A stretch of 64,000 nucleotides of DNA, taken from the NCBI GenBank assembly GCA_001771535.1, contig MEUB01000007.1:1386-65385 (forward strand). The letters run 5' to 3'. The translations under genes and the position numbers were made by a program. This DNA comes from a candidate division WOR-1 bacterium RIFOXYB2_FULL_37_13 (GTDB taxonomy: Bacteria > Margulisbacteria > WOR-1 > XYC2-FULL-46-14 > XYC2-FULL-37-10). The notes beneath the pieces were generated by a model, which had not been told where the DNA came from, did not search any database, and saw nothing but the letters and a program-made list of their open reading frames with translations. Shown here one piece after another: positions 4,257 through 57,052 of this stretch. How positions within the stretch are numbered: the first letter of the stretch is position 1; each line of letters opens with the position of its first letter.

Positions 4257-4344
4257 AAAATATTTTGCCGAGCCTCCTTATTATTCTTGAACCTCAATTC
4301 TCACCCTTTAATCTTCGCCTGCGTTCGTCTAATGTTTCCCCTTC
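4257..4344 (-). repeat. Cassette-junction repeat R2
   Basis: Minus strand reads GAAGGGGAAACATTAGACGAACGCAGGCGAAGATTAAAGGGTGAGAATTGA...GGCAAAATATTTTATG. In the R3 frame it still encodes EGETLDERRRRLKGEN-stop although no gene uses that frame here. Confidence 0.85.
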
Positions 4345-5387: not shown

Positions 5388-5444
5388 TTCTCCTTAATTT
5401 TCGCCCTTTAATCTCCTTCTGCGTTCGTCCAAGGTTTCCCCTTC
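5371..5444 (-). repeat. Cassette-junction repeat R3 (functional 3' end of the T5orf172 gene plus UTR of rhuM)
   Basis: GAAGGGGAAACCTTGGACGAACGCAGAAGGAGATTAAAGGGCGAAAATTAAGGAGAATTGGCAAAATATTTTATG. Confidence 0.85.
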
Positions 5445-5996
5445 ATACATCCAATAATCTGTTCCAGCAACCCCATAGCTGTATCCTAATATTTCCTTTG
5501 CGGACTTCGAAAGACTTGTTATCTCCTCGTTAAAATTAATTGAACGATTATCTACAACCTTTGCCTTTATATTTTCATCTCGGCTAAAAACTAGTTCTGC
5601 GCCAAGCGGAATATCCACCATGCTAAAATCAAATCTTTCACGAATAGTTCTAGCATTATCAAGGGCTTTTTGGTCTTCATGAGATTCCACAATATCGTTT
5701 TTGGGGGTAACATTTTCAATTTCTGCTAATTTTAAAGCTGCCACAATCCGTTCTGGCGCTATTTTAAAAAACTCTCTTTTTGGATTGATTCGATTATTGT
5801 CAAATGCATCGTGTAATTGATGTTCAACAAAACTCATATCTTTCACCGTGCAAGCATAGAAGCAAGTAAATGGGAGCGGAACACTTGTAGAGGCGCTAAG
5901 TTCTCTTATTCTTTGCTCAAGGCTAGTAGAAGTCTTGCCGATTTTTACATAACCAGGCATAGCTTCATTAGTAAGAACATAAACTATTTCACTCAT
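5394..5996 (-). CDS. T5orf172 (MUG113/GIY-YIG-like) domain protein with C-terminal DUF4357-like domain
   Basis: IVYVLTNEAMPGYVKIGKTSTSLEQRIRELSASTSVPLPFTCFYA..REFFKI matches the T5orf172 pattern. The likely ATG at 5996 overlaps the upstream stop (ATGAGTGA). Confidence 0.75.
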   Translation of the reverse strand: MSEIVYVLTNEAMPGYVKIGKTSTSLEQRIRELSASTSVPLPFTCFYACTVKDMSFVEHQLHDAFDNNRINPKREFFKIAPERIVAALKLAEIENVTPKNDIVESHEDQKALDNARTIRERFDFSMVDIPLGAELVFSRDENIKAKVVDNRSINFNEEITSLSKSAKEILGYSYGVAGTDYWMYEGETLDERRRRLKGEN

Positions 5997-6606
5997 TTTG
6001 AGCCTCACCTATTCTTAAAGGTTGAACAATACTTTTTATTTTCATTCCCCCCTCTTGATAATCTCTAGCCCATCGATAATTCAATTCATTATCAAGTCCC
6101 TTGAGGTAAATATAAAACGCCCTAATTTTATCCTTCACTTCCATTAATTTATTATCGTCAATTGACTCCCATAGTCCCTTAGCCTCAGTTAAAAGAATTT
6201 CTCTGTCTCTATGAGCTGATAATTTATTCCTAAGTTTGCGATAGAAAGCCCCTTTCCCAAAATCACTGATTTCACTCAAAAATTCATTAAACTTGACCAA
6301 TATTTGTTTCTGAACTAAACAATCAATATCGGTAGTTTCAATTATAAGGCATTTAAATTCAACAAACTTGTCATACAATGAACACAAGTCCATATAAATA
6401 TATTTTAAGAGTGCCTTTTTTTTATGAATATCTTTTTGAACTCTTGCAATCTCCGCCAAACAAAAAATGTCCTCCCATATTAATTTAATTAATACAAATT
6501 GTTTGGTTAGTGTTTCTTCCGGAAAATATTTATTATCGTTATTGTTACTAAAAGGGTGGAAAATATCATCCCTATTTCTATTATAAAAACATTCTTCCTC
6601 CATCAC
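5989..6606 (-). CDS. All-helical 205-aa protein with HEPN-like Rx5H motif (RNKLSAH)
   Basis: ATG overlaps the R-M stop (ATGA at 6603-6606). The motif YRKLRNKLSAHRD fits the HEPN RNase signature RN(x4)H. No other recognisable domain. Confidence 0.5.
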   Translation of the reverse strand: MMEEECFYNRNRDDIFHPFSNNNDNKYFPEETLTKQFVLIKLIWEDIFCLAEIARVQKDIHKKKALLKYIYMDLCSLYDKFVEFKCLIIETTDIDCLVQKQILVKFNEFLSEISDFGKGAFYRKLRNKLSAHRDREILLTEAKGLWESIDDNKLMEVKDKIRAFYIYLKGLDNELNYRWARDYQEGGMKIKSIVQPLRIGEAQNE

Positions 6607-9479
6607 TTCTCCCCCTCCACCACCCGAATCTCCGCCTCCGTCAGCCCATAGAGCTCATAAACCAGCTCATCGATTTGCTTATCAAGAATTTCTATCTTCT
6701 GCTGATAGTGCCTCTTGTCGGTTTCGGATTTGGCGGAATGATACTTTTTTTGAGTTTCAAGCATTTGATCGACATATTGAATAAGTTTATTTTCAACGGA
6801 TTTATTGACATTGAGCATGCATGGAAATCCATTTAAATCTTTAATTACTATTTTGGGAAATAATCTTCTAGAGCTTTTTATTGCACGATTTTTATAAAAC
6901 ACCGAAAACAATCTTGAGTTCAATTGCGCTAAAAGGATTTTAAGATTGTCATCATTATCATAAAAGTCGAGTATATTGAGAATGCTTTTATTGTTTAATA
7001 GTAATTTGTCGCTATAGCATCCAAGTATACAGCGAGGTGGCTTCCCTGTTATTTCTCTGATTAAAATTCGCTTTCTTGAAAATATATTTAATTTTCTTGG
7101 TTGCGAGAGCCAATTGCCATACCTTAGATATTTGCCATCAAATGATGAATAGTATCTCCCACAATTTTTCCCTTCAATATATGGATAAGTGTTTTTGTCA
7201 TACTTATAATCATAATCATATATTCTATTTTTGACATCTTCTAATGATTGCTTTGGGACACCTTTTCCCTGTTCATAAGCTTGTAAGCCTGTTTTCACAT
7301 CAAAAAACTTTCCAACCATGCCTGATGAATGAATTAGCTTAGACAAAACCTTATCTAAGCTAATATTTTCTGGTATATGAATTTTATATGTATCTGACCC
7401 AGCAAGCCAATCTCTTTGGGAATATTCAACATATTCCTTACTAATAATTTCAAATGGGAAAAAGACTTTTTTGCATTTTGTTTCCCCTTTTGAATTCTTT
7501 GATCTGTCTACTTGAAATATTGTCGTTTCAACCTTCGCGCCATCAAACACTTCATATAATATATCCAACAAGAATTCAAGATTATAATCTGAAAGGATAA
7601 GCTTTCGTAGTAACTGACCCGATTCAATCGTTAACCATGAATTTGGCACAATAAAAGAGAACTTTCCGTCCCTTGACAAAAAGCTCATGGCTCTTTCCAT
7701 AAACATGATAAAGGTATTTGGTTTCTCACGTAAAGTTTTATAAGTTCTTGAAAAATATTGTTTTTCAATATCAGAAAGATGTTCTCTTGATAATACATAC
7801 GGCGGATTCCCAATCACACAATCAAACCCTCCCGCTTTAAATATTTCAGGGAACTCTTTCTGCCAATCAAAAATATTGATCTTCTTCATCTCGTCATTAC
7901 CAAAAAGAGATAGGTTTTTGTCTTTGTAAAAATCAGATCCGATTAGAGAATTTCCGCATTTTACATTGTCAGAGAGTGTTGGAAGAAGTTTGGTATCGCT
8001 AAATTTAAATAGCTTCCCCGCACTTTCATCACTCTCCCCCTCAAGCAATTTGAGCATCAAAGAAAGCTTGGTTACCTCGACAGCCTGCGCGTCTATATCT
8101 ACCCCAAATATATTATTGAGCAAAATATTCTGCTTTTCTTTTATTGTCAGTTTGTAAGAATCCTTTTTGGCAAGATAAATAACTTCGTTTTTAAGAGCTT
8201 TGGATAGATTCTCTTTTTTCGCATAATAAGCCAAATGATAATTAAGCAAATAAGTATATGCGCCAAGCAAAAATGAGCCTGAACCGCACGCGGGATCAAC
8301 TATCTTGAGCTCCTTTATCTCTTTTGGAGTAAGTCCCTTTACTTTTTCGCCAACCGTATTCTTGACAATATAATCAACAATATACTTTGGCGTATAATAA
8401 ACACCGCCAGCCTTGCGCACCTCGGGCTTTTCCTCAATCTTTGCCATATGCGACTCGGTCAAGCGGATAGTCTTGCCAAGAAATTGTTCGTAAATATTGC
8501 CTAGAATTTCTACGGGCAATACGGAAAACGCATAAGGACATTCGGGATAATAAAGCCCTTTTATTATCTTTTCAAAAACATCATCATCAATATTAAGAGA
8601 ATTAATAGCTTCGTTTGGCTTAAAAAGTTCGCTGTTATATTTTTTATTGGCTTTATCAAAATATAAAACCAGATTTTCATACACACGCTTGTCATTGCCA
8701 ATATGTCGGAGATTCTCAAACTGCTCAATCCCTTTTTCTTCGCATATCCTCAAAAAAATTATCCTATCAATAATTTTCTGAACAGCCATATTGATACCAT
8801 AAAGATCGGTCTTCTTATTGTTTTTTGCTATATTTTTCGCCAGCTCGCTTCGCCACTCTTCAATAAGTTTTAAAAAATCTTTGTCTACTTCCGAATATCC
8901 TTTTTTGGTGCCGGAACCGACATAGTTGTTTATGCTCCCTTTTTTTATGGCATCTTTAGAAAACAGTCCATATAAAAAATCCCAATTCTTTTCATATTCT
9001 TCATATGTGCAATAAAAAAGCCTGGCAACAGAAGCTTTGTCATTTTTCCCTGGTTTTATTCTTGTGTCATAAATAGCAAACTCTTGGAAGTCAGTTAAAA
9101 TTGATATTTTTCTTTTCGCGGTATAGCCATAACGCCTTACCTGATATGCGGGGTCAATAGACTCTTTAAGGAAAATAGAAGGCTTTTTGGTTTCAACAAA
9201 AAAGACAGGCTCATTGCCTATTCTAAAAGTGTAGTCTGGATAATTTTGTGTTCCTGATATCTCAAGGTTGTCCTCAATTATGACATCGCGAAACTCTTCA
9301 ATAACCCCTTCTTTATTGCTTATATCCCAATCAAAAAGCTCAAAGAATTGATCAACAAAGTCCATCCTCAATCGTGTTTCTTTATAATTCTTTTCAGTAT
9401 ATTGAGAAAGATTGCCGTAAAATTTATCTACAAGCTTGCGCAGTTTTTCCAGTCTCTCTGATTTATTAATTGCTGTCAT
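6603..9479 (-). CDS. Type IIG restriction-modification enzyme (Eco57I/MmeI-like single chain: PD-ExK nuclease, N6-adenine MTase, TRD)
   Basis: N-terminal PDYTFRIGNEPVFFVETKKP (D..ExK). SAM motif I VDPACGSGSFLL and motif IV VIGNPPYV. C-terminal specificity region ends ELYGLTEAEIRVVE, typical of this family. Confidence 0.9.
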   Translation of the reverse strand: MTAINKSERLEKLRKLVDKFYGNLSQYTEKNYKETRLRMDFVDQFFELFDWDISNKEGVIEEFRDVIIEDNLEISGTQNYPDYTFRIGNEPVFFVETKKPSIFLKESIDPAYQVRRYGYTAKRKISILTDFQEFAIYDTRIKPGKNDKASVARLFYCTYEEYEKNWDFLYGLFSKDAIKKGSINNYVGSGTKKGYSEVDKDFLKLIEEWRSELAKNIAKNNKKTDLYGINMAVQKIIDRIIFLRICEEKGIEQFENLRHIGNDKRVYENLVLYFDKANKKYNSELFKPNEAINSLNIDDDVFEKIIKGLYYPECPYAFSVLPVEILGNIYEQFLGKTIRLTESHMAKIEEKPEVRKAGGVYYTPKYIVDYIVKNTVGEKVKGLTPKEIKELKIVDPACGSGSFLLGAYTYLLNYHLAYYAKKENLSKALKNEVIYLAKKDSYKLTIKEKQNILLNNIFGVDIDAQAVEVTKLSLMLKLLEGESDESAGKLFKFSDTKLLPTLSDNVKCGNSLIGSDFYKDKNLSLFGNDEMKKINIFDWQKEFPEIFKAGGFDCVIGNPPYVLSREHLSDIEKQYFSRTYKTLREKPNTFIMFMERAMSFLSRDGKFSFIVPNSWLTIESGQLLRKLILSDYNLEFLLDILYEVFDGAKVETTIFQVDRSKNSKGETKCKKVFFPFEIISKEYVEYSQRDWLAGSDTYKIHIPENISLDKVLSKLIHSSGMVGKFFDVKTGLQAYEQGKGVPKQSLEDVKNRIYDYDYKYDKNTYPYIEGKNCGRYYSSFDGKYLRYGNWLSQPRKLNIFSRKRILIREITGKPPRCILGCYSDKLLLNNKSILNILDFYDNDDNLKILLAQLNSRLFSVFYKNRAIKSSRRLFPKIVIKDLNGFPCMLNVNKSVENKLIQYVDQMLETQKKYHSAKSETDKRHYQQKIEILDKQIDELVYELYGLTEAEIRVVEGEK

Positions 9480-9665: not shown

Positions 9666-9890
9666 CTATACCGGCTGTGGTTCCGTGAGTAAATTCTTTT
9701 TTTCAATCAATTCTTTTCGTCGTTCAATAATTTTTTTGGTGACATTATTTTCAGGAATTTCATATACAACAATAGAATCTTTGTTGTACAGATTCATCGA
9801 TTTACATTTTGGACACTTAATTTCTACGTTGCTCCCCTCTCCAACCTTTGCCAATAACCTATTGCAAAAGCTGCACCTAAATTCTTTCAT
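9666..9890 (-). CDS. com: Com-family zinc-finger protein (phage Mu Com-like)
   Basis: MKEFRCSFCNRLLAKVGEGSNVEIKCPKCKSMN parallels Mu Com (RCxxCNKLL..EIxCPxCK). RBS AGGAGAGGTGA upstream. Same strand as the R-M gene and immediately upstream of it. Confidence 0.7.
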   Translation of the reverse strand: MKEFRCSFCNRLLAKVGEGSNVEIKCPKCKSMNLYNKDSIVVYEIPENNVTKKIIERRKELIEKKNLLTEPQPV

Positions 9891-10011
9891 AAAACCTTAT
9901 CACCTCTCCTAAAAATATAAATACTCAATAACTTTCACCCTATCAATACAACAGGATACCACAAAATAAAGCGCCTGTCCATGTATTTTTTACTGCTCTT
10001 TTGCTGTTTTT

Positions 10012-10039
10012 TTATCGTGCATATTTATATGAAATTTCA
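10012..10039 (-). promoter_or_regulatory. TGAAAT-N14-CACGATAA bipartite promoter-like motif upstream of the com/R-M operon
   Basis: Minus strand reads TGAAATTTCATATAAATATGCACGATAA, 122 nt upstream of the com ATG. Confidence 0.4.
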
Positions 10040-18548: not shown

Positions 18549-18669
18549 AATTATATTATGCGCCTGCTAAAAACATATTATACCCTGATTTTTGATTGAA
18601 ACCAAATTTTGAACAATACCCCCATTAGCCTGCAATATAAATTTTCTTTGCTCTTTTGCAATAAATAAG

Positions 18670-18697
18670 TGAAATTTCGTTTTCTTTTATTCGATAA
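18670..18697 (+). promoter_or_regulatory. TGAAAT-N14-TTCGATAA bipartite promoter-like motif
   Basis: TGAAATTTCGTTTTCTTTTATTCGATAA, 40 nt upstream of the ATG at 18737. Confidence 0.45.
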
Positions 18698-18736
18698 TAA
18701 TGTAGAATATAATCATACATGGGAGGAATAATTTTT

Positions 18737-19939
18737 ATGACAAGTCAAATATACGGAGGAGTTCGGTTGCTTGATACTAGGTTTTCGACCCCAGTAGAAA
18801 AAAAAGAATCAGATCCATTAGAAGATATGCTCGCCGAGCTTGAAAAGGCACTCCCTAAGGAAGGAGATCAACTGCCAACAGCCAACGGGAAGAACCCGGA
18901 AAAAATAAATGGCAACGCCTTAGCTCAAGCTGAAACAACATTAGAAAAAGCCATAGAATTTTACAATAAAAAATATTCTCTTCTTCCAGAAATTAGCAGG
19001 GATCCTTCACTGCTAGCAATGCTGGCAACATATCAAAAAAGATTGGGGATACAATATGATTTAAGAGGCAGAACGAAAGAAGCAATTGCTTGCTATAAAC
19101 AAGCTTATGAGCTTGGCAACTATTCAGCTCCAGCAATCGCGGGAAGAATACAAAGATTAAGAATGGCTCAAGCAGATGAGAGGTACAACGAAATAGAAAG
19201 AGAGCATAATGTCTTACTCGCAGAGCGTTTATCTAAACAAAAAAACGAACCAGAATCAGGCTTAACCGAAGAAGCAATTGCAAGGCTTGGCGATACTGTA
19301 GCACGTAGTAGAATTCGCATGCTTGGCTCATTGCCTCCAACACAAGCATCAGCAGCCACCACAGCTTCACTAAAAATACCCGAAGCCGTAGCAAAAAGAG
19401 AACCAAAAACACCACCACCTCCTCCCCTAACAATGGTTCCCGGTCCGGAAATCAGCGCAGAAAGAGTCAGTAAAGTACCACGAGAACCAAGAAGGACTGA
19501 CGAGTCACAAGCTCTCCCTACTTTCGAATCAGGAAGAAGACCATCTGTTTTACCAAATATAGCAACTGTTGCAAACGCAGGAACAATAACAATTGATATA
19601 TCAGCAAACAACGTATTAACAGATGCGGCAAATAAATTAAATTTACAGATAAAAACACGGCTTCTTCCAAACATAAGAGACGTCTCGTTAATTCCTATTA
19701 CATTAACATGCGTTGTAGAATTAAAAGATGGCAACTACTATCTGAGGACAAAAAGCATTAAACCGGGGAGTGACATGGATTCATTCAGTCAAACTATAAT
19801 AAAGGCAAATAGCAGGAATGTCTATTCTGCCTTGCTTGGAAATCAAGAAAAAGCAGATGAAATCATTCAGGCGATTGCGGATAATGCTACTATTGATATT
19901 AACAACGGAACACAGTTGATAGAATTTATTTATAAATAG
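18737..19939 (+). CDS. Orphan protein with TPR-like segment and Pro-rich linker
   Basis: ORF opens at 18719, but GGGAGG at 18720-18725 favours the ATG at 18737 (MTSQIYGG..). No signal peptide. Contains KTPPPPPLTMVPGPE. Confidence 0.6.
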   Translation: MTSQIYGGVRLLDTRFSTPVEKKESDPLEDMLAELEKALPKEGDQLPTANGKNPEKINGNALAQAETTLEKAIEFYNKKYSLLPEISRDPSLLAMLATYQKRLGIQYDLRGRTKEAIACYKQAYELGNYSAPAIAGRIQRLRMAQADERYNEIEREHNVLLAERLSKQKNEPESGLTEEAIARLGDTVARSRIRMLGSLPPTQASAATTASLKIPEAVAKREPKTPPPPPLTMVPGPEISAERVSKVPREPRRTDESQALPTFESGRRPSVLPNIATVANAGTITIDISANNVLTDAANKLNLQIKTRLLPNIRDVSLIPITLTCVVELKDGNYYLRTKSIKPGSDMDSFSQTIIKANSRNVYSALLGNQEKADEIIQAIADNATIDINNGTQLIEFIYK

Positions 19940-19996
19940 AATTTCACAATTAATCGATGATCGAACAAAAAGAGCTGCTTTTAAGCCTGCCGTTAG

Positions 19997-20024
19997 TTGA
20001 CTTTTCAGGGCCAAAGACTATAAT
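19997..20024 (+). promoter_or_regulatory. Near-consensus sigma-70 promoter (TTGACT-N16-TATAAT)
   Basis: TTGACT 19997-20002 and TATAAT 20019-20024, upstream of the 385-aa gene. RBS GGGAGGGCGG. Confidence 0.6.
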
Positions 20025-20057
20025 TATTTTTATAGTATCTTCCAGGGAGGGCGGTAA

Positions 20058-21215
20058 ATGATACAACCAATTCCAATTGGTACACAACAAACTTCTTATC
20101 CGCGCAAACAGGAAGAAATCGCGTTTGAAACCCCTCAGGATTCAGCCATTACAGAAGATTTGTACGAAGTAACCCCTACACTGGTTGATTTTGTAAAAGA
20201 AATAATTTCAACATCCCGCATAACAAATAAAGAACAGTTGGCAAGAATACTTGTTATACACATAATCCCGCCAAGAAGTTCATTTAAAGTCAATGGCAAA
20301 AGATTTATTGGATCGCCCGTAGGCTTAAATCTGCAATTTGTCCTTTATTCGTCAAATCCAAAAGGCGAGGGAAGAACAAAGTTCGGTTTTTTTACCCCTA
20401 CAGAAATAATAAAAGCCCGGCAACAAGGTATTCTCGTAGAAACCGAATGCATGGAAGCAGCTGCTTTACTGACAACCCTATACAGGATAGGAGCTTGCGT
20501 TTTGGATAATAAAAATCCATATACCGCCGGCAGAGATGAAAAACTTGCCCACTTAGAAATAAACAGAAAAAGAACACATTCCTGGCCTGTAATAAATTTA
20601 CGAGTTGGGGATGAAAATAAATGGGTTAAAATAGATCTGACAAAAGAAGCTTTCAAGTTTGAACCGACAAGACAGAGGCTTAAAGCTTCAAAAAGCTTAT
20701 CCCCTAAAGAGGCATCACGCGAGCAACTAATTTCAGCCGCCTACCTTTTTTTGTTTCAAGAAAATCAGGAAAGGATGCTTAGCTGCTTAAAGGCCGCCTA
20801 TTCTTTGGACCCGTCAGATAAAAAAACAAAAGAAAAATACTTGGAGGCTCTCATGGCAAGCGGACTCACGGCTTTTACAAAAGGGGCTCTTGATACTTCC
20901 TATTCCTGCTACACACAAGCATATTCATTAAACCCTTATAACCCTGAAATTTTAATAAATATCGCAAATATCCTGGCAGAACAAAAAAATTATCAGGGGG
21001 CAATGCTTGCCTATGCAAACGCCGTAAACAGGTTAAACACGGGGCTGCTTACCTGGGAAAAAAGAAAATTACTGGGAATTGCTCACAAAAATATGGGCAC
21101 AATAAAAGAAAATCTGGGAGAAAAGAACGAAGCTGTTGAATATTATATGATGGCCGCTTCTTTTGGCAATAAAATTGCAGCTCAAAGACTTTCTGAAATA
21201 ACTCCACGCGAATAA
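20058..21215 (+). CDS. Putative transglutaminase-like cysteine protease core fused to C-terminal TPR repeats
   Basis: The spacing TECMEAAALLTTLYRIGAC .. AHLEI .. KWVKIDLT resembles the Cys-His-Asp arrangement of transglutaminase-like enzymes. The C-terminal approximately 130 aa are TPR. Confidence 0.45.
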   Translation: MIQPIPIGTQQTSYPRKQEEIAFETPQDSAITEDLYEVTPTLVDFVKEIISTSRITNKEQLARILVIHIIPPRSSFKVNGKRFIGSPVGLNLQFVLYSSNPKGEGRTKFGFFTPTEIIKARQQGILVETECMEAAALLTTLYRIGACVLDNKNPYTAGRDEKLAHLEINRKRTHSWPVINLRVGDENKWVKIDLTKEAFKFEPTRQRLKASKSLSPKEASREQLISAAYLFLFQENQERMLSCLKAAYSLDPSDKKTKEKYLEALMASGLTAFTKGALDTSYSCYTQAYSLNPYNPEILINIANILAEQKNYQGAMLAYANAVNRLNTGLLTWEKRKLLGIAHKNMGTIKENLGEKNEAVEYYMMAASFGNKIAAQRLSEITPRE

Positions 21216-21312
21216 ACAGGCCAAATGTCGACTTATTTCCGCAAGATTTTTCCCCTTCAAAACGATATATATAACAGGAGAGTTTTCTTGAATCTAAAGG
21301 GCAACTCTAGGA

Positions 21313-21340
21313 TGAAATAAAGCGCCATTTTTTTCGATAT
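21313..21340 (+). promoter_or_regulatory. TGAAAT-N14-TTCGATAT bipartite promoter-like motif
   Basis: TGAAATAAAGCGCCATTTTTTTCGATAT, 18 nt upstream of the ATG at 21358. Confidence 0.45.
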
Positions 21341-21357
21341 ATATGCAGGAGTTTTAG

Positions 21358-24300
21358 ATGGTTAACAATGATATTTCTATAGAAACTTTAAAAAACAACG
21401 GAATAATTCCCAAGCATGATAATGGGCTCGCTCCCGTTGGGACAGCAGGAGAAGACAGGTCTCAAGATAACAACCCTGAAAGAGAAGCTTTGTCCATCTT
21501 TGATTCAGCAAACATATCAGACACAGCACAAAAATCAAAATTAACTGCCGAAGAAATGGCAAAAAATCAAACAATCAGTGATTCAAGAAATGCTTTGCTT
21601 TCATTTAGTTATATTTCGGTGTATGACGAAAAAACTCACCAATATAAATTGGTGCCAAACTACGACACAGCCCCCAAAGATTTAAAATCAATAAAAAGCT
21701 GGGAAGAGAGCGCCAATAAAGCACTGCATGCCGCAAAAAGACTGAAGACAGATAACAAAGAAGTTGAAGAGATACGGTTTTTGGCAGAACGTCAAAAAAC
21801 AGTAGCAGAAGCTTTTAGGGCTTATTATAAAGGGAACTACAAAAAAACCGCCAGACTGTTTGAAAAAATACCTGAAAAAACAAGAAATGTTGAAATCCTG
21901 CAGGCAATGAATACCTGTTATTCGCGAATTGGAAATAAGCTTTTGGCAGACAAAACTTTTGACGCGCTGCAAAAAGCGGTTGCAACAAGAGAAAAAGTTG
22001 CGCGAGATCCAACATGGAGAATTATTCCGGAGGTTCCGATAGAACCCATTGCACAAGACAGAGGAGAAATACGGCTTGCAGAAAAAGCAATCATTAAAAA
22101 CCCGGCCATCGAAGCCAAGGCAAAACTGATAGCCGCAACAAAAAATAACAAAATACTTGAAGATGAAGAAGTTTTAAGGGATATTATTTTATCAGAAATT
22201 AAAGGGGCTTCAGAAGAATTAGCCACTCAAAGAAAAGAACTCACGGCGGGTAAAAGCGAGGATCCTGACATTCCAAGAATTTCTATAGAAAATCTTCAAG
22301 CAAGAATAACAACCGACGTTAAAATCATCGCAGACTATTATAAAAAAACAGCCGATACGCTTATTTATGCCGATGTTTATTATTTGGCAGCTCAAAATAT
22401 AAAAGATCCGCAACTTGCATCTGTTTTCCTTCAAAAACATTACGAAATAAAAACACCTTATGTAGCCCGCCTGGTTGAATTCAGGCTAATTACTACAAAC
22501 GAAGGAAAACAAAAATGTCCGCAAGGAAGCCTACTGCCAACAATTGGCAACAGAGAGGAAGCTGAAGCAATAATAGAAGACGCAGCGTCTGTCCTGGAAC
22601 TAACAAGCACGCTTTCTGAAGATAATCCGGATATCTATTTTTACAGAACAGTAGCAAAGGCTCATATAAAACTCGCAGAAATATATAAGAAACTTGACAG
22701 CGGAGACACAAATGGGACATTAATTGATCTTTTTGCCATGCTTGAAGAGCATAAAAACGATCCGGCTATATACCAGGCAATCTCACAATGCTATCAGGCA
22801 GAAAAAACAGAATCAGGAAAAGTACTTGCTGATTATTATAAAAACAAGGCTCAAGGGAAAAACACGGAAGAAAGCGTAAAACTATTGAGGCAAAAGCCAA
22901 CGATAAACGATTTTTCCACCGCGTATTCATCTCTGTTTGGTTATGAAACTACTCCGAAAACAGGATATATTTATGCCCTCCCTGAAATAAGCAATTTACA
23001 AACAGCATACGCTATCAGAAGTAATGCAATAGAAGTTGGAGATATTGCGCTTGCAGTTCCAGAAACATCAGGAAATGGCATTGATTTTGCGCTGGTAAAC
23101 AGGCTTTACGCAGAAGGAAATATCGCTTATTACAAAGGAGATTATGCCGCTGCGATTAATTCTTTTAATGATACGCTGGCTGTTTTTGAAAGCAGCTATT
23201 TACCCCCTCCAACAAATTATTCAATTTATAGGGATATGGCGGACTGTTATGAAAAAACCGGAGATACCGCAAACGCCCTTGTTGCATACGCAAAAGCAGA
23301 AAAACTATCCGAAAATTATACGGCCGAAGCTGACTGCCGGCAAAAGATAGAGTCATTAACAGAAAGAATTATAAACTCCGAAAATTTAAGCGTTCTTATC
23401 GAAAACAGAATGTTTTATACAAGAGAAGGAACTCCAAAATATATTTTAGATGATTCAACTCTCCCATATCCCAGAACAACCAAAGAAATAAATGAATTCA
23501 TAGAAGATTTAAGCTACGCCCTTGCATTGATAAAAACTCTTCCGGCAGGCAATCAACTATATGCATACGCAAAACCAATTGAAAAACAAATTGAATTTTT
23601 AAACATATGTCAAACTTTTTATCTGGGAGATGGGGAATCCGCGAAAATAAAACTTTTCGCGCTGCTTTCAGAAAAAAAAGATCCCGCCATATACAAAATG
23701 CTTGCTCAGTATTACCACCAAAGCAACGATCCTTACGGAGAAGTTATTGCCGCTTATTACAATGAAAAAGCGGAAGATTTTGGAAATATTTCAAGTTTAA
23801 CAGGACCCGCAGAAGTCGACCCTGATAAAATGCTAATCGCGCTAAGATCATTAATAGGATTTGCTCCCGAAATCGCCGGATTTACTCTTCCAAGCATAGC
23901 AAATGAACTGGAGGCAAAGGCAATGCAGGCAAATGCGGGGGAAGTGCTGGAAATGCTTGGATATTCATCTGAAGATTTAAGCAATATGTTAAACGTCGTG
24001 CAACTTAATCTGTATTACTCAACAGGTTGGATAAATCTTCATAACGGAAGTTACCGCGAAGCTGAAAAAAGCTTTCAAAATATAACAAAAGATACCATGC
24101 TGTCACTTATATTAACCTCCAATCATTGGCAGACAATCGCAGCCTGTTACGAAAAAGCCGGTAATAAGGAAGAAGCCCTCGCAGCTTATAAAAAGGCTGA
24201 AGAGATGGCGCAGGACAACGAAACAATGGTGGCAATGCAGACAGAAATTGACCGTTTAAGCAAACAAGGTGTTCGTTATCCCCAAATAGTGGATGCAAAA

Positions 24301-24360
24301 AAATCAGTTGCCCCTCCTAATGATAAAGAGTCTCTGCCTCAAACAGCAAAAAAACCTTAA
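21358..24360 (+). CDS. 1000-aa orphan TPR protein with internally duplicated approximately 300-aa module
   Basis: No signal peptide. Two collinear modules: ..NDPAIYQAISQCYQ..ADYYKNKA.. and ..KDPAIYKMLAQYYH..AAYYNEKA... Each is followed by a TPR pair ending ..CYEKTGDT/CYEKAGNK. Confidence 0.7.
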   Translation: MVNNDISIETLKNNGIIPKHDNGLAPVGTAGEDRSQDNNPEREALSIFDSANISDTAQKSKLTAEEMAKNQTISDSRNALLSFSYISVYDEKTHQYKLVPNYDTAPKDLKSIKSWEESANKALHAAKRLKTDNKEVEEIRFLAERQKTVAEAFRAYYKGNYKKTARLFEKIPEKTRNVEILQAMNTCYSRIGNKLLADKTFDALQKAVATREKVARDPTWRIIPEVPIEPIAQDRGEIRLAEKAIIKNPAIEAKAKLIAATKNNKILEDEEVLRDIILSEIKGASEELATQRKELTAGKSEDPDIPRISIENLQARITTDVKIIADYYKKTADTLIYADVYYLAAQNIKDPQLASVFLQKHYEIKTPYVARLVEFRLITTNEGKQKCPQGSLLPTIGNREEAEAIIEDAASVLELTSTLSEDNPDIYFYRTVAKAHIKLAEIYKKLDSGDTNGTLIDLFAMLEEHKNDPAIYQAISQCYQAEKTESGKVLADYYKNKAQGKNTEESVKLLRQKPTINDFSTAYSSLFGYETTPKTGYIYALPEISNLQTAYAIRSNAIEVGDIALAVPETSGNGIDFALVNRLYAEGNIAYYKGDYAAAINSFNDTLAVFESSYLPPPTNYSIYRDMADCYEKTGDTANALVAYAKAEKLSENYTAEADCRQKIESLTERIINSENLSVLIENRMFYTREGTPKYILDDSTLPYPRTTKEINEFIEDLSYALALIKTLPAGNQLYAYAKPIEKQIEFLNICQTFYLGDGESAKIKLFALLSEKKDPAIYKMLAQYYHQSNDPYGEVIAAYYNEKAEDFGNISSLTGPAEVDPDKMLIALRSLIGFAPEIAGFTLPSIANELEAKAMQANAGEVLEMLGYSSEDLSNMLNVVQLNLYYSTGWINLHNGSYREAEKSFQNITKDTMLSLILTSNHWQTIAACYEKAGNKEEALAAYKKAEEMAQDNETMVAMQTEIDRLSKQGVRYPQIVDAKKSVAPPNDKESLPQTAKKP

Positions 24361-24362
24361 AA

Positions 24363-24390
24363 TGAAATTCGGCCTCTTTCTTGTCGATAT
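24363..24390 (+). promoter_or_regulatory. TGAAAT-N14-GTCGATAT bipartite promoter-like motif
   Basis: TGAAATTCGGCCTCTTTCTTGTCGATAT, 27 nt upstream of the ATG at 24417. Confidence 0.45.
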
Positions 24391-24416
24391 TGTTATAAGT
24401 ATAAGAAAAAAACCTT

Positions 24417-25079
24417 ATGGCCATTTCTAATTCTATTCTTAATAACAATGCAAACATACCTGCCAATACGATAAAGCTGGAACCAGCTTCTCCCCAAAAA
24501 CAACCTTATGATGCAATAGAGCTGGATCTTTCATCAAAAGATCCCAAACAAAGAGAGGCGGAAATTCTGGCTGTAAGAGGGAAAAATGCTCTTAACAATG
24601 GAGATCTGGCTAAAGCTCAAATCTTTTTTAAACAGTCTCTTGCCATTCGGCCAAATTATATTCCCGCGATTTTTTTTATGGCAATGATAATGGATATGCG
24701 GGGACATTACGGAGATGCTGTGAAATTATATGAAAAAATAATACAATGTTCGGACAAGCCCGGATTTGTATCCGCTGCCAAAAAAAATATGGGGCAAATA
24801 TTTTTTGCTATGGGTAATTTTAATTATAAAAAAGAAGATTATGCCGCAGCTCTTTTCTATTATGCGAAAGCAACGACAGCTGATCCTAATTTTGCGGAAG
24901 CGTGGAACAATAAAGGGGTCGCGCATTTAAAGTTAAATCAATATCAAGAGGCGATAGAATCACTTGACAAAGCAATAAAGCTTAACTGTGATGAAGCTTT
25001 AAGCAATAAAGATATTGCCATAAGACTAAAAGAAATTTCAGAAGGGATTTATTCTTCGACCATCGTCCCAATGCCGTGA
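24417..25079 (+). CDS. TPR repeat protein (220 aa)
   Basis: Low-complexity N-terminus followed by 3-4 canonical TPRs (AEAWNNKGVAHLKLNQYQEAIESLDKAIKL). The 3' end overlaps argB convergently by 31 nt. Confidence 0.7.
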   Translation: MAISNSILNNNANIPANTIKLEPASPQKQPYDAIELDLSSKDPKQREAEILAVRGKNALNNGDLAKAQIFFKQSLAIRPNYIPAIFFMAMIMDMRGHYGDAVKLYEKIIQCSDKPGFVSAAKKNMGQIFFAMGNFNYKKEDYAAALFYYAKATTADPNFAEAWNNKGVAHLKLNQYQEAIESLDKAIKLNCDEALSNKDIAIRLKEISEGIYSSTIVPMP

Positions 25080-25918: not shown

Positions 25919-27036
25919 TATGTATGATACCTTGCGTTAATTTTTATATATCCTTCGGTTAAATCACAACCCCAGGCAAAAGATTCCGATGCGCCCGCAC
26001 CAAGGTCGCAAATAATTATCGCTTCTTTTTTTAGGAATTTCATTGATGTCGTAATTTTTTCAGGATTAATTTTGGCGCCAGTCGCTCCAACTGCCGCCAA
26101 AATGCGGCCCGGATTGTTGTCGTTGCCATAAACAGCGCATTTTAATAAATCAGATCCAGCAATGGCGCGAGCGGCGATTTTAGCTTCTTTTTCATTACGC
26201 GCCCCTGTCACTTTTACCGTTATAAGCTTTGTAGCTCCTTCTCCATCACGCGCGATTTCCCGTGCCAGATACTTGCAGACAAATTCAACAGCTTCTGAGA
26301 ATTCCCGCATATTAGAGTTGTCGATCTTTATGTTCGAAAGCCCATTGGCAAGAATAAAAACACAGTCGTTTGTCGACATGCATTGGTCAACAGTTGTCAT
26401 GTTAAAAGAGATATCCACCGCTCTTTTCAACACAGACTGAAGATTTTTTTTGTCTATTAACGCGTCAGTTGTTATAAAAGCATGCATTGTGGCCATATTT
26501 GGATGGATCATTCCAGATCCCTTTGCAATGCCACCCACAAAAAAATCCCCGACTTTAACTGCAATTTCTTTTTTTCTAAGATCAGTCGTCATGATAGCAT
26601 CGGCAGCAGAAGAGCTTCCGTTTTTTGAAAGTTTTTTAACAAGGAGTGGCATCCCATGTATTATTTTTGACATAGGCAAAACCTCCCCTATCTTGCCTGT
26701 AGATGTAACAAGAACATGGTTTGATTTAATATTTAATGCCTTTGCGATACTGCTTGCAGTTTTCCTTGCATCCAAAATCCCCTGCTCGCCTGTGCCGCAA
26801 TTTGCGTTTCCCGCGTTCGCAATAACAGCCTGACATAATCCTGACTTAATATTTTCTTCCGAGACAATAATGGGTGCAGCCTTGTATTGGTTTGTAGTAA
26901 AAACTCCCGCCGCAACTGCCGGCACATCGGAACAAACAAGAGCCAAATCTTTTTTGCCTGACTTTTTTATTCCGCACGCAATCCCTGAAGCCTTAAATCC
27001 GCGAGGCGCTGTGATTCCACCTTTTGTTTTTTTCAT
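25918..27036 (-). CDS. argJ: Bifunctional ornithine acetyltransferase / N-acetylglutamate synthase
   Basis: Autoprocessing-site motif PNMATMHAFITTDA, GFKASGIACGIKK, C-terminal ..INARYHT. Confidence 0.9.
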   Translation of the reverse strand: MKKTKGGITAPRGFKASGIACGIKKSGKKDLALVCSDVPAVAAGVFTTNQYKAAPIIVSEENIKSGLCQAVIANAGNANCGTGEQGILDARKTASSIAKALNIKSNHVLVTSTGKIGEVLPMSKIIHGMPLLVKKLSKNGSSSAADAIMTTDLRKKEIAVKVGDFFVGGIAKGSGMIHPNMATMHAFITTDALIDKKNLQSVLKRAVDISFNMTTVDQCMSTNDCVFILANGLSNIKIDNSNMREFSEAVEFVCKYLAREIARDGEGATKLITVKVTGARNEKEAKIAARAIAGSDLLKCAVYGNDNNPGRILAAVGATGAKINPEKITTSMKFLKKEAIIICDLGAGASESFAWGCDLTEGYIKINARYHT

Positions 27037-28079
27037 GGGAATAATGCAATTCCTTTCAATCCAGATGTTTCATCCATACCAAACATCAAGTTCATATTCT
27101 GTATAGCCTGACCCGCGGCTCCTTTTATCAAATTATCAATCACGGACATTACAATTATAGTCTTCGTCTCGGAATTGATGGAAATTCCTATATCACAATA
27201 ATTTGTACCCGAAACATTTTTAGTACAAGGCTCTCCTGCTTCATAAACTCTTACAAACGGCACATCGGAGTAAAATTCTTTGTAACTTTCTAAAACATTG
27301 GATATTGAACATTGGACATTGGACATTCTTGCGTACACAGTAGCAAGTATCCCTCGGTTCATGGGAATAAGATGCGGAGTAAAAGTTGTGCTGATATTTT
27401 CCCCTCCTATCTTGCTTAATTGATAATTAATTTCCCCCATATGGCGATGATTGTTAACAGAATATGGAACAACCCCTTCGTCCCTTTCACAAAAATGGGT
27501 TTTAAGCGATAAGCCTCTCCCCGCGCCGGAAATCCCCGATTTCGCGTCAATAATAATAGATTCAATATTGATTAGTTTCTCTTTCACAAGAGGGGCCAGC
27601 CCCAAAATAGAAGCAGTCGGATAACATCCGGGGTTCCCTACCAGCCGCGCTTTTTTGATATCTTTGGCATAGATCTCCGGCAGGCCAAAAACCGCTTCTT
27701 TTAAAAGTTTTTTGTCCTGATGTTCAAGCTTATACCACTTTTTAAAAACCGCTTCATCGTTAAATCGATAATCAGCCCCAAGATCGACAACTTTTTTGCC
27801 TTCGTTAATAATTAAAGGAACATATTTTATGGAAAGCCCGTGAGGAAGAGCAAGGAAAACAACATCTATTTTTTTAATAAGTTCAGGTAAATCATCATAT
27901 GATTCCGACGCAAGATCACAAACTTTTTTTAAATGGGGATAACGATCCGCAATTTTTACGCCATTATTTTCATCCCCTGACATTATCCAAGCAACTTCCG
28001 CCTCGGCATGATTGAGCAGCAAAGAAAGAACTGTTTGTCCTGCATACCCTCCTACGCCTATAATTCCGACTTTTATCAT
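27033..28079 (-). CDS. argC: N-acetyl-gamma-glutamyl-phosphate reductase
   Basis: N-terminal Rossmann motif IIGVGGYAGQ and active-site GNPGCYPTA. Contains the heptamer repeat (MSNVQCSISN) at 27296-27326. Confidence 0.92.
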   Translation of the reverse strand: MIKVGIIGVGGYAGQTVLSLLLNHAEAEVAWIMSGDENNGVKIADRYPHLKKVCDLASESYDDLPELIKKIDVVFLALPHGLSIKYVPLIINEGKKVVDLGADYRFNDEAVFKKWYKLEHQDKKLLKEAVFGLPEIYAKDIKKARLVGNPGCYPTASILGLAPLVKEKLINIESIIIDAKSGISGAGRGLSLKTHFCERDEGVVPYSVNNHRHMGEINYQLSKIGGENISTTFTPHLIPMNRGILATVYARMSNVQCSISNVLESYKEFYSDVPFVRVYEAGEPCTKNVSGTNYCDIGISINSETKTIIVMSVIDNLIKGAAGQAIQNMNLMFGMDETSGLKGIALFP

Positions 28080-28095: not shown

Positions 28096-28205
28096 TGTAC
28101 GGGCGTATCGCGATGCGACCCCCTGTACGGGCGTATCGCGATGCGATCCCCTGTACGGGCGTATCGCGATGCGATCCCCTGTACGGGCGTATCGCGATAC
28201 GCCCC
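28096..28205. repeat. 4 x 28-bp GC-rich tandem repeat with palindromic core
   Basis: Unit TGTACGGGCGTATCGCGATGCGATCCCC at 28096, 28124, 28152 and 28180. The last copy contains the perfect 20-nt palindrome GGGCGTATCGCGATACGCCC. It lies between the stop of the 716-aa gene and the argC start. There are no spacers. Confidence 0.9.
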
Positions 28206-30355
28206 TACCTTATCACCGCGATCTTCCCTCCCCCGACAACCCTGCCTCCCTGGACAACCTTAAACAAATACGCGCCATTTCCTAATGTGTCACCCCATGA
28301 ATTCTTGCCGTTAAATTCTACATTATTCTCGCCTGCTTGTCCTCCGTTTGTTCCTGATGGATACGTACTCTTCCAAACCAAAACTCCATTCATGTTCATT
28401 ATATATATCGTTGTATCCGCGGAACTGCTCAGCCAATACCAGATTCTTGCGCTCCCATTGTTTGGATTGTATGGATTTGGTCCAAACCTGAAACTATTTT
28501 CTGTTGTTATCCCCATTGGCACAAACGTTGTAAAATGGGTTGTTGTAAATGTTACGCTGTTTGTCGTATACGACACGATTGTTATTCCTCTTGTACTCCA
28601 GCTTGATGTTGTTGCATCCCAATAATATACTTTTGGGTTATTTGTTCCGCTCTCTATTGAAATAGTTACGGTCACCGGATTCAAAAACTCTGATGTTGGA
28701 CTGCTTGTAAGGCTTATCATCTTTCCTCCGATTTTAAATCCTGTTGGAGGATTGACAGGCTGTGTTATTTCCACAATTGTTACTTCTAAACTTGAAGATA
28801 CAGCATTTGCCGGAATTGTCACTGCAACTCCCAAACTACTGTCGCTAAACTCCTGCGTTGCGTGGGAGGTTGTTTCTGTGGTTGGAGTAGGTTCCGGTTC
28901 TGGCTCTGGGGTTGGCTCTGATGTTGGGGTTGCTGCAATTGATGTTATTGTCACCTCTCTCGTACTGCTAAATTCACTTGTATTATTGCTCGCATCCGTT
29001 TGTGTTACAGTTACGGTTTCTCCTGTTATAAATATTACTCCGCTTGACGAGATATCTAGTGTTGTCTCAAAACTTCCCAACGAATTAGATTCAACGCTTC
29101 CAAGATAATATCTCCCTTGATTCCCAGATGCTTTAAAGATTTCTACAACAGCATTTGATGTGCCTGTTCCTGTTATATTTAACATCTCACTTGTTCCTGC
29201 GTATGTCACGGATGTTATCTCGGGAGTTGGGATGTTTTGATTAGCACTATTTTTTAAGGTTATTCCCTTGTTGTAATTAGAATATATAGAATTTTGCGTG
29301 ATTTTGTTGTTTATATGTGAAACATTATCAATATAAATTCCACCAAGGGATTCACCGCTTCCATTACAAGCAATTAAATTTCTAGGGCCTATAATGTTAT
29401 TTCTAGCATTATTGACATAGCTTGGCAGTAAAATGCCGCATTGTGAGTTAGTAAGATTTGTAATCCCATCTGGGTTGACGCCTATGTAATTACCTGACAC
29501 CTCATTCCCTACTACATCTGCCATAAAAATCCCTGTCCTATTGCCTGAAATTATATTCCTTCCATTTTCCATCCCATTTCCTATTATATTACTATCCCCA
29601 TCATTTAGGTTTATTCCAATATAGTTAGCCACAGAGAAATATCCTGAGGCTGATGTTCCAATATAATTTCCAAAAACTTCATTACTGTTTGAGCTAATTA
29701 ACAGTCCCGAGCTGTTGCCTGAAATTATATTCCTTTCACTTTGATTTATCCCTCCTATAATGTTAAAAGTACTGTTACCTTGAATTGTTATTCCATAATA
29801 ATTTCCACATATCCCCTCGCCTGAAGCAGTTACGCCTACATAGCATGATTTTATAACATTTCTATTCCCATCAAATATTTGTATGCCACTTTGGGCAATA
29901 TGAATACCTGAAAAATTAACTATCACTAGCCCCTCTATTGTGCAATTGCTAGCACCACTTAACATTAGTCCATCTATTTCTCCTGCAGTACCCCTTATCT
30001 CCACCTCCGGCCCCAACGCGTTATTGTTTCCCTCGCTTGTAGGCTGGCTAAATCCTTTTATGTATATATTATTTTTACTTATCATAGGCAATTCGGAATT
30101 AACTATTATCCTAAACCATTTATTGCTCCCTGCTTCGTTTGTCACAACCCCCGCCGAGTATTCCCCCGTCGACGCGGTTGTATCCCACGGTATATTAAAC
30201 TCTATGGCATCCCCCGTCGTAACATCCGTCAACGCCTGCCGCAATGACCCAGCGCCGCTGTCGGCACAGTTTGTTACAGTCAGCGTCACAGCAAAACTAA
30301 ACGACTGAAAAAATACCAAGAAGCAAAAGACGAAAAAGATGATTTTTGATTTCAT
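28205..30355 (-). CDS. Secreted right-handed beta-helix (NosD/CASH-like) repeat protein with Thr/Pro linker and FlgD-Ig/T9SS-CTD-like C-terminal domain
   Basis: Signal peptide MKSKIIFFVFCFLVFFQSFSFA. Many GN.IGxN..GI repeats. Linker TPTSEPTPEPEPEPTPTTE. C-terminus GPNPYNPNNGSARIWYWL..GAYLFKVV..KIAVIR. Confidence 0.65.
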   Translation of the reverse strand: MKSKIIFFVFCFLVFFQSFSFAVTLTVTNCADSGAGSLRQALTDVTTGDAIEFNIPWDTTASTGEYSAGVVTNEAGSNKWFRIIVNSELPMISKNNIYIKGFSQPTSEGNNNALGPEVEIRGTAGEIDGLMLSGASNCTIEGLVIVNFSGIHIAQSGIQIFDGNRNVIKSCYVGVTASGEGICGNYYGITIQGNSTFNIIGGINQSERNIISGNSSGLLISSNSNEVFGNYIGTSASGYFSVANYIGINLNDGDSNIIGNGMENGRNIISGNRTGIFMADVVGNEVSGNYIGVNPDGITNLTNSQCGILLPSYVNNARNNIIGPRNLIACNGSGESLGGIYIDNVSHINNKITQNSIYSNYNKGITLKNSANQNIPTPEITSVTYAGTSEMLNITGTGTSNAVVEIFKASGNQGRYYLGSVESNSLGSFETTLDISSSGVIFITGETVTVTQTDASNNTSEFSSTREVTITSIAATPTSEPTPEPEPEPTPTTETTSHATQEFSDSSLGVAVTIPANAVSSSLEVTIVEITQPVNPPTGFKIGGKMISLTSSPTSEFLNPVTVTISIESGTNNPKVYYWDATTSSWSTRGITIVSYTTNSVTFTTTHFTTFVPMGITTENSFRFGPNPYNPNNGSARIWYWLSSSADTTIYIMNMNGVLVWKSTYPSGTNGGQAGENNVEFNGKNSWGDTLGNGAYLFKVVQGGRVVGGGKIAVIR

Positions 30356-35128: not shown

Positions 35129-35974
35129 CTAACCTTCATCAAAGACCTCTTTTTGCATAAACCCATATTTTCTCAAAAACGTATAATCGCCCAATAAAGC
35201 TGCTTTATTGGCAATTCTGCGGAATTTGGGGTTTTGATTGACATACCATTCATAGGCCCACGCAAAGGCCTCAAGCGGGTTTTCGTCCATTGGGTGCTTT
35301 TTGTCCTTGCTAAGCTTTAAAACAATCTCGCCAAAAACATCACTGTTCATGGCAAGCGATTTCATGGTAAACCGATCTATTACAGATTCCCAGTCTTCTT
35401 TATCCAAATCGACTTTTTTTAATCCGATCTGATGCAGTTTATTTCCCGGAATAAAAAACTTTCTAAATTCACTCATATTATAGCCGGCTTTTTTAACAAA
35501 CTCCATAAACTCTTTAAACTCAAGGTTAAAATGAGAAACTGCATGTCCCACCTCATGCACCAAAACTTGGGGGATCTCCTGAGGTTCGGTATTGTCAAAA
35601 ATATAAACTCGTTTGCTATCCGCGTCATAAGCCCCTCCCGCGTCAATTCTTAATCCAGAAAGCAAACGAATCCGATGTTCGCGGTTCTTGATAATCTGCT
35701 TAACTCCCATCAAATGCTGGCGTTTCTTTTTTTGAATCTCCTCAAGAGTCTCACCAATTATCGCAACCTCAATGGCTGAAAATTTAACATCGGAATCAAC
35801 AATAAAAACGCCAAACTCTTTTGCTATTTTTTTGCGTAAAATTATCCCCTCAGGAATAACTATAGGCTGAGTATTTATTCCCTGAATCCCAAGTTGATTA
35901 TAGGGAAGCGAAACTCCTGCCCGATTTATTCCATACGCGCCGATACTGTTTGGATTTATAGGATCAATAGCCAA
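35129..35974 (-). CDS. Putative zinc metalloprotease (HExxH) without signal peptide
   Basis: VLVHEVGHAVSH motif. TTG start (35974-35972) after RBS GGGAGATGG. N-terminus AIDPINPNSIGAYGINRAG is low-complexity. Confidence 0.5.
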   Translation of the reverse strand: MAIDPINPNSIGAYGINRAGVSLPYNQLGIQGINTQPIVIPEGIILRKKIAKEFGVFIVDSDVKFSAIEVAIIGETLEEIQKKKRQHLMGVKQIIKNREHRIRLLSGLRIDAGGAYDADSKRVYIFDNTEPQEIPQVLVHEVGHAVSHFNLEFKEFMEFVKKAGYNMSEFRKFFIPGNKLHQIGLKKVDLDKEDWESVIDRFTMKSLAMNSDVFGEIVLKLSKDKKHPMDENPLEAFAWAYEWYVNQNPKFRRIANKAALLGDYTFLRKYGFMQKEVFDEG

Positions 35975-36077
35975 GACACACCATCTCCCGTTCTAATCAT
36001 CGTAAGAAACAGGTTAAATCTTGCAATTTATAAAAAATCATGAGAAAATAAATCCCCGCGTCAAAAAGGGTAGTTAT

Positions 36078-46828: not shown

Positions 46829-46856
46829 TGAAATTCTCTGAATTTCATTTCGAGGG
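46829..46856 (+). promoter_or_regulatory. TGAAAT-N14-TTCGAGGG bipartite promoter-like motif
   Basis: TGAAATTCTCTGAATTTCATTTCGAGGG, 32 nt upstream of the ATG at 46888. It contains the inverted repeat TGAAATTC/GAATTTCA. Confidence 0.35.
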
Positions 46857-55162: not shown

Positions 55163-55181
55163 TTAACCCGAGATCTTTACC

Positions 55182-55490: not shown

Positions 55491-55576
55491 GGTTTGGCTC
55501 CTTATGTTTAAATAATTATAGAAATAATAGCATATTTTTGTGGGGTAGAGGTATCCTAGAAATTAGAGCCAGGGAC

Positions 55577-57036: not shown

Positions 57037-57052
57037 GTAAGGAAAAGGGGAA

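Follow-up and report, generated by a model that had tools for sequence, protein, structure and literature searches.

A stretch of 64,000 nucleotides (the window) from the candidate division WOR-1 bacterium RIFOXYB2_FULL_37_13 (contig MEUB01000007.1 of assembly GCA_001771535.1, positions 1,386 to 65,385) carries repeated copies of a bipartite motif, TGAAAT-N14-TTCGATAW, which stand in one orientation upstream of genes and of which the most conserved precedes rpoD, the gene of the primary sigma factor. The motif is used throughout the Saganbacteria/Margulisiibacteriota lineage and is restricted to that lineage. Judging from its sequence, it very probably represents a promoter class, conserved across the lineage, for an alternative factor of the sigma-70 family. 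We give about an even chance to the more specific proposal that this factor is a sigma-28-type sigma with an altered -35 specificity and a non-flagellar regulon, which is suggested because the core of the -10 box and the register of the two boxes are exactly those of sigma-28 promoters.

The motif and its position upstream of genes

The eight copies that were described by an earlier, sequence-only reading of the window were all located at the coordinates and on the strands it had given (Table 1). They share one spacing, all eight point to a start codon downstream, and the distance to that codon, which had been given as 18-122 nt, was measured as 17-122 nt. The -10-like half that was considered common to all of them is present in six, but at 39815 and 46829 the CGATA core kept at the other collected sites is broken, the latter retaining only C-G-A, and these two sites are therefore regarded as weaker. 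With up to two mismatches allowed, TGAAAT-N14-TTCGATAW has 13 matches in the window against 3.3 expected, and the strict core GAAA-N17-CGATA has 6 against 0.67; none of 100 shuffles reached 13 or 6, respectively, and all six strict matches belong to the eight sites. The weak antisense match within dnaK that had also been mentioned exists as a one-mismatch match in coding sequence; it is probably due to chance and was left out of the regulon. Another match, TGAAAT-N15-CGATAA at 26017-26043 on the minus strand, has a spacer that is one base short. It lies within argJ, at its 3' end and some 70 nt ahead of argB, and may be either an internal promoter or a coincidence.

For unbiased tests we used 258 kb of lineage DNA with 610 occurrences of CGATA. 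The hexamer exactly 22 nt 5' of CGATA is TGAAAT in 26 of these 610 cases, and the runner-up hexamer occurs 3 times. The sequence-only reading had proposed to judge the motif by whether it favours the upstream regions of genes, and it clearly does so: 24 of the 26 sites are followed within 150 nt, on the same strand, by the start of an open reading frame (ORF) that is preceded by a Shine-Dalgarno sequence, compared with 23% of random positions.

The anatomy of the motif was analyzed in an alignment of 41 sites of this main class (class 1). In the -35 half T1, G2, A4-5 and T6-7 are invariant, A3 is found in 40/41 sites and T8 and T9 in most, and a spacer of 13-14 nt without conservation follows. 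In the -10 half C23 and A25 are invariant, G24 and A27 each occur in 40/41 sites, T26 in 38/41 and A28 in 30/41. The flanks, which were never used for site selection, are also non-random, with an A-rich stretch upstream and A at positions 29, 31 and 33. Position 36, likewise not used for selection, is G in 27/41 sites and a purine in 37/41 (p = 2e-10). If A25 is the flipped base at -11, then position 36 would be the first transcribed base (+1). We infer that RNA polymerase binds at the motif and starts at this purine; the leaders would be short, starting at or just before the Shine-Dalgarno sequence, and the predicted rpoD transcript begins at or just before AGGAGG in every lineage.

This geometry bears on the question of whether the motif is a promoter at all. 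One option is that it is an operator for a repressor or an activator, or a leader element which acts at the RNA level, and a regulator binding site had been kept as a fallback for the sites that end less than 20 nt before the start codon. Some sites are indeed that close, and in a few copies TGAAATTTCA forms a perfect palindrome. Against this, the two boxes are unrelated to each other and the spacer is free, as is typical of sigma contacts; the distance from the site to the start codon is variable (17-132 nt) while that to the purine is fixed; and no Rfam family overlaps any site. The fallback for the close sites is also unlikely because the predicted +1, which is nearly always a purine, would lie 8 nt past the -10 box, where it coincides with the Shine-Dalgarno sequence or shortly precedes it. 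We thus consider an operator or a leader element quite improbable. As a separate candidate, a palindromic transcription-factor site at TGAAATTTCA was rejected since position 9 is T in 29/41 sites and position 10 is variable.

Conservation of the motif in the lineage

The window sequence is matched by the NCBI assembly GCA_001771655.1 (contig MEUH01000053.1) and by several Rifle groundwater metagenome contigs. The nearest RpoD was found in a Margulisiibacteriota metagenome-assembled genome (77% identity) and the nearest DnaG in 'candidate division WOR-1 bacterium RIFOXYD2_FULL_36_8' (61%; WOR-1 36_8 below), followed by Saganbacteria and Margulisiibacteriota. A position weight matrix (PWM), which took in nothing but the two boxes of the eight sites in the window, gave nine matches scoring at least 18 in 68.5 kb of four relatives and no match scoring at least 17 in 1.22 Mb, taken from 76 loci of other phyla.

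The rpoD site is kept in ten related lineages, among them loci L001, L086, L089, L090, L211, L212, L213 (with one more base in the spacer), L118 and L168; their DnaG identity goes down to 43% and their G+C content ranges from 32% to 52%. The motif was not found at the dnaG-rpoD junction of Termititenax, Melainabacteria, Firmicutes and others. The site usually overlaps the conserved C-terminal peptide of DnaG, ...L(N/T)EI(L/F)R..R*, and one explanation is that its conservation is a by-product of this coding sequence. Yet the arginine codon under the site is always CGA, the -35 box does not vary at its synonymous positions, and the L118 motif is wholly intergenic, past the dnaG stop codon; the constraint therefore acts on the DNA, and a coding artefact of the DnaG C-terminus was rejected. 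Duplication of upstream regions or of paralogous genes was rejected as well, as the target proteins show no similarity to one another by blastp and the spacers and flanks are unrelated. The shuffle controls and the contrast in PWM matches between lineage and control DNA stand against a chance similarity, and we regard chance or a by-product of either kind as extremely improbable.

Promoters of the primary sigma gene within dnaG are known from E. coli (Phs, read by sigma-32) and from the sigA operon of B. subtilis (P3, read by sigma-H). As in these two cases, a non-housekeeping promoter in the 3' part of dnaG would drive rpoD independently of the upstream operon. Unlike them, the consensus, and presumably the sigma family, is different, and an entire candidate phylum keeps the arrangement.

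Other sites of the window are also conserved in the closest relative. The com site is found together with about 25 nt of its leader in WOR-1 36_8 (L086/L214), and in the same organism the orthologous divergent intergenic region by the M15 peptidase gene has a site before a 435-aa TPR gene (L214 9921-9948); in more distant relatives metK with a canonical promoter fills the place next to the M15 peptidase gene. The com leader itself (window 9891-10011; L086 13372-13449, minus strand), which reads CGATAAAAAAA[C/T]AGCAAAAGAGCAGTAAAA..., is almost identical in the two genomes, and such near-identity despite a DnaG that is only 61% identical suggests a functional 5' untranslated region or a small RNA.

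A metagenome scan for TGAAATTTT-N13-CGATAA returned 80 loci, 11 of which have further independent high-scoring sites, and NCBI assigns the proteins of one of these multi-site loci (L152) to Candidatus Margulisiibacteriota. Many loci with a single match were not used, being probably chance matches in unrelated organisms.

The sequence-only reading had also pointed to looser variants of the motif, GCAAGATTT...ACGAT, at 21241-21268 and at about 35995-36025. Both exist (2 matches, at 21241 and 35999, against 0.05 expected), and they belong to a second class, GCAAG(A/T)TTT-N13-CGAT(A), which has its register, -10 box and 'ATATAG' discriminator in common with the main class. Outside the window class 2 was found at six places, on contigs that carry the main motif, and in 1.2 Mb of control phyla it was not found. 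A tandem of class 2 and class 1 was seen twice, in the window (21241 and 21313) and in L126, and the genes downstream of class-2 sites are again orphans, including a HExxH protein. This suggests that there may be two related sigma factors, or one sigma with two acceptable -35 boxes.

Table 1. Sites of the two motif classes and the antisense match in dnaK (positions are those of the window unless a locus is named).
Feature	Position	Strand	Context
rpoD site, class 1	2422-2449	+	in the last dnaG codons; 18 nt 5' of the rpoD GTG (rpoD 2468-3514)
com site, class 1	10012-10039	-	122 nt 5' of com (9666-9890, Zn_ribbon_Com); conserved leader
18737 site, class 1, perfect match	18670-18697	+	39 nt 5' of 400-aa orphan gene 18737-19939
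21358 site, class 1, perfect match	21313-21340	+	17 nt 5' of 1000-aa TPR orphan 21358-24360
24417 site, class 1	24363-24390	+	26 nt 5' of 220-aa TPR gene 24417-25079
Weaker class-1 site, -10 box CGAAAA	39815-39842	-	47 nt 5' of 643-aa orphan 37836-39767 (ATG at 39767)
Weakest of the eight sites, -10 box CGAGGG	46829-46856	+	31 nt 5' of 439-aa orphan 46888-48207 (ATG at 46888)
Class-1 site, perfect match, best PWM score	62342-62369	-	25 nt 5' of 595-aa TPR gene 60529-62316
dnaK antisense match, TTAAAT, one mismatch	44100-44127	-	inside coding sequence; PWM score 14.2, below every accepted site
Class-2 site, GCAAGATTT-N13-CGATAT	21241-21268	+	tandem, 72 nt 5' of the 21313 site
Class-2 site, GCAAGATTT-N13-CGATGA	35997-36024	-	22 nt 5' of HExxH orphan 35129-35974
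Further class-2 sites	L092 10815; L126 2630-2655; L129 966-991; L134 497; L141 9379 and 9475

Candidate sigma factors for the motif

In the window, canonical TTGACA-N17-TATAAT promoters precede tRNA-Met, the 20058 gene, metK and hrcA with its CIRCE operator. Since they are visible in the same DNA, the motif forms a second promoter class, in agreement with the sequence-only reading, which had set it apart from canonical sigma-70 promoters. RpoD shares regions 2.3-2.4 and 4.2, residue for residue, with the SigA of Geobacillus and Sporosarcina, so that the housekeeping sigma should read the canonical promoters, and because such promoters are present the extra invariant bases of the motif would need another sigma. 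One could still suppose that the sites are weak, unusual RpoD promoters (nTGAAA-N18-GATAAn) and that the extra bases are contacted by an activator or a different DNA-binding protein. Site 18670 can be read as GTGAAA-N18-GATAAT with 9/12 matches, and this reading changes neither the A at -11 nor the predicted +1; in a global count, sigma-70-like matches show no excess (26 against 22.7 in shuffles) and only individual best matches are informative. What makes RpoD promoters improbable, besides the canonical RpoD and the strong canonical promoters nearby, is that C-13, G-12, G-34 and the TTT tract are highly conserved yet lie outside sigma-70 recognition, that housekeeping promoters have T at both -12 and -7 and the motif has neither (-12 is G in 40/41 sites), and that the boxes are not arranged as a palindrome or as a direct repeat, unlike the sites of dimeric regulators. 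A distinct class with an architecture like that of sigma-28 or extracytoplasmic function (ECF) promoters, as was first proposed, is supported by the spacing, the orientation, the orthologous conservation and the lineage restriction.

The likeness to sigma-28 promoters is found in the -10 box and in the register. In the sigma-28 open complex at the P. aeruginosa fliC promoter, TCTAAAG stands at -36 to -30 and GCCGATAA at -15 to -8 (PMC12784957). The motif has AAA (-33 to -31) and CGATAA (-13 to -8) in the same register; its -10 core CGATAA is identical, with A at -11; and its spacing, GAAA-N15-nnCGATAA, matches the gap of about 15 nt between TAAA and GCCGATAA, the rpoD site of L213 (+1) being the exception. 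A TTT tract also follows the -35 core, and a purine stands where +1 is expected. A flagellin gene in L149 (phmmer E = 3.5e-30) has a promoter, TAAAGTTT-N11-GTCGATAT, with the same register as the motif. The motif and sigma-28 promoters differ in the -35 box, which in the latter is TAAA(GTTT) (TCTAAAG / TAAAGTTT), as the motif has G at -34 and T at -30.

In the mechanism that we propose, a group-3 sigma factor (FliA/SigD/WhiG type), whose region 4 would prefer G at -34 and T at -30 over T and G, would contact a -35 box TGAAATTT, with AAA at -33 to -31, behind the A-rich upstream stretch. After the 14-nt non-conserved spacer it would meet a -10 box CGATA(A/T) with A at -11, followed by an AT-rich discriminator (A-n-A-n-A) and a purine start 8 nt past the -10 box. 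The most conserved target would be the primary sigma gene rpoD, through the promoter at the 3' end of dnaG, and the remaining regulon would consist of com and of mostly lineage-specific orphan and TPR proteins without signal peptides.

Several observations weigh against a sigma-28-type factor. In the 258 kb of lineage DNA the sigma-28 -35 sequence TAAA occurs at the corresponding position at chance level (7/610), as opposed to 28/610 for GAAA, and the GC extension of the sigma-28 -10 box (at -15/-14) is not conserved, position 22 being C in 4/41 sites. Flagellar or chemotaxis targets were not found by Pfam among about 35 downstream genes, and the extrapolated regulon is larger than is typical for sigma-28. 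No second sigma gene was found in the window or in the fetched lineage loci, which have RpoD only. The -35 box with its T-tract is at least as ECF-like (tGAAACnTTTt, N16; PMC5758882) as it is sigma-28-like, and class 2 (GCAAGTTTT) parallels the sigma-V -35 box GCAAAC of B. subtilis.

In its targets the motif is thus unlike sigma-28 promoters, with rpoD as the most conserved target and an apparently far larger, orphan-rich regulon. No flagellin, MotA, CheY or pilin ORFs were found in the lineage loci, a sample of about 10% of one genome equivalent. A non-flagellar regulon has precedents in the sigma-28 family, namely WhiG and the type IV pili of Rubrobacter (PMC8325347), and Margulisbacteria have flagellar superoperons of a kind that usually includes sigma-28 (PMC11607428). 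The Chlamydia sigma-28 regulon was rejected as a model of a large regulon, as it consists, by ChIP-seq, of just hctB and tsp (PMC12282069). The literature on Riflemargulisbacteria and Saganbacteria gave nothing on motility or sigma factors, and the supplements of the FlgV paper hold no Margulisbacteria sequences.

Another hypothesis, to be taken seriously although we hold it with less confidence, is that an ECF (group 4) sigma reads the motif, with TGAAATTTT and GCAAGTTTT recognized by two paralogous ECF sigmas of overlapping -10 specificity, comparable to B. subtilis sigma-W, -V, -M and -X. ECF sigmas commonly drive the genes of other sigma factors. The gap from TGAAAT to CGA is exactly N16, and the two -35 classes share a -10 box and a discriminator and sometimes stand in tandem. 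The boxes of B. subtilis sigma-W (TGAAAC-N16-CGTA, with the -35-proximal T-tract tGAAACnTTTt), sigma-V (-35 box GCAAAC) and sigma-X (-10 box CGAC) resemble the halves of the motif (PMC5758882). The likeness to this ECF type (which has GCAAAC...CGTC among its boxes) includes TGAAA(C/T) with a T-tract, the N16 gap, a -10 box starting with CG, and two sibling -35 flavours (TGAAA-, GCAA-) with a similar -10 box. On the other hand, the near-universal 'AAC' of ECF promoters is absent, since position 6 is T in 41/41 class-1 sites (AAT) and class 2 has AGT or AGA. The -10 box is the longer CGATAA of the sigma-28 type, in which A25, T26 and A27 are almost invariant and the third base is A, not T, in 41/41 sites. 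Downstream of the sites no autoregulated sigma/anti-sigma operon was found, in a sample that covers a small fraction of any genome and with an RpoE seed search that is not very sensitive. Finally, the targets look cytoplasmic and orphan, without envelope or envelope-stress functions.

Target genes, their surroundings and the meaning of the motif

In the window the motif precedes rpoD and com, and its other targets encode four TPR proteins and two to three proteins in which Pfam has no domain. No specific domain was found in six of the eight first genes downstream, compared with 8/47 of the other window genes (Fisher p = 0.002). The target proteins have no signal peptides, and the 1000-aa TPR protein has neither a relative in the metagenome scan nor a homolog outside its own species. 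The 46888 gene had been labelled as an LRV-repeat gene, a label that finds no support in Pfam. In the relatives the downstream genes are mostly orphans again; the non-orphan targets there are a LacI-type regulator, methyltransferases, alanine dehydrogenase, a PfkB kinase, a GH8 enzyme, a Ser/Thr kinase and an arginase-TPR fusion. No pilus genes, and no flagellar or chemotaxis genes, were found in any lineage locus. Sites occur about every 10-15 kb in some 245 kb of sequence, part of which was picked because of the motif, and by rough extrapolation there would be one to two hundred sites (transcription units) per genome.

Two adjacent orphans of 525 and 546 aa, both preceded by the motif, lie at 3318 and 4945 of L138 (metagenome contig Ga0315291_10000025). 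In both, the N-terminus is polar and rich in Ser/Ala and a bilobed hydrophobic hairpin lies around residues 100-150, and in this they recall the chlamydial Inc-type secreted membrane proteins.

The surroundings of two target groups are variable. The com gene had been described as part of a com/restriction-modification (R-M) operon; its identity as a Zn_ribbon_Com gene was confirmed, but its counterpart in the closest relative is a single gene that no R-M genes accompany. In the window an island at 3876-9479, between tRNA-Met/rpoD and com, holds a DUF1016 fragment, RhuM, T5orf172, an orphan and an Eco57I/MmeI-type restriction-modification fusion. As com directly follows rpoD in the closest relative (L086), the R-M block is taken as an insertion, and the operon may be a secondary arrangement. 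The four-gene TPR/orphan cluster (18549-25079) adjoins an M15 peptidase-xerC-tamB-bamA block and was found nowhere but in the window and in the closest relative, where its form differs (compared with L215/L216 9780-10010). It lies in a variable region, since more distant Saganbacteria have metK at that place.

Repeats were also observed elsewhere in the window. At 28096-28205 there are four tandem copies of a G+C-rich 28-nt unit (TGTACGGGCGTATCGCGATGCGACCCCC, 95% matches), which sit between the stop of a Big_6-domain gene (28205-30355, minus strand) and the start of an argC-like gene (27033-28079). Families of direct repeats with 88-98% identity lie at 55176-55613, 56953-57189, 58950-59185 and 59503-59734; they include duplicated 3' fragments of tRNA-Val and a 42-nt GGAAATTAGAGATT unit, they flank genes of the 23S_rRNA_IVP family, and they look like the scars of elements integrated at tRNA-Val.

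As a kind of element, promoters of alternative sigma factors are well known. The new points are the consensus, its use across a phylum, rpoD as the most conserved target, a regulon dominated by orphans, and a sibling class with another -35 box. To our knowledge the phylum has no cultured member and its transcriptional regulation is wholly uncharacterised. A promoter motif of such high information gives a direct computational handle on a large, mostly unannotated set of co-regulated genes, and it predicts a specific sigma factor with an altered -35 specificity, to which rpoD would be wired across the whole lineage. It can also serve as a practical lineage marker, as its score is reached every 10-15 kb here and never in 1.2 Mb of other phyla. 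We further raise, as a speculation which we think less than probable, that a phylum-specific sigma or a pair of paralogs (with TGAAATTTT/GCAAGTTTT as -35 boxes and a shared sigma-28-like -10 box), uncoupled from flagella, may act as a global switch that joins rpoD and one to two hundred fast-evolving orphan and TPR genes without signal peptides into a lifestyle or developmental programme. If the factor that reads the motif is indeed a relative of sigma-28, this would be another, and unusually broad, co-option of the flagellar sigma for other programmes.

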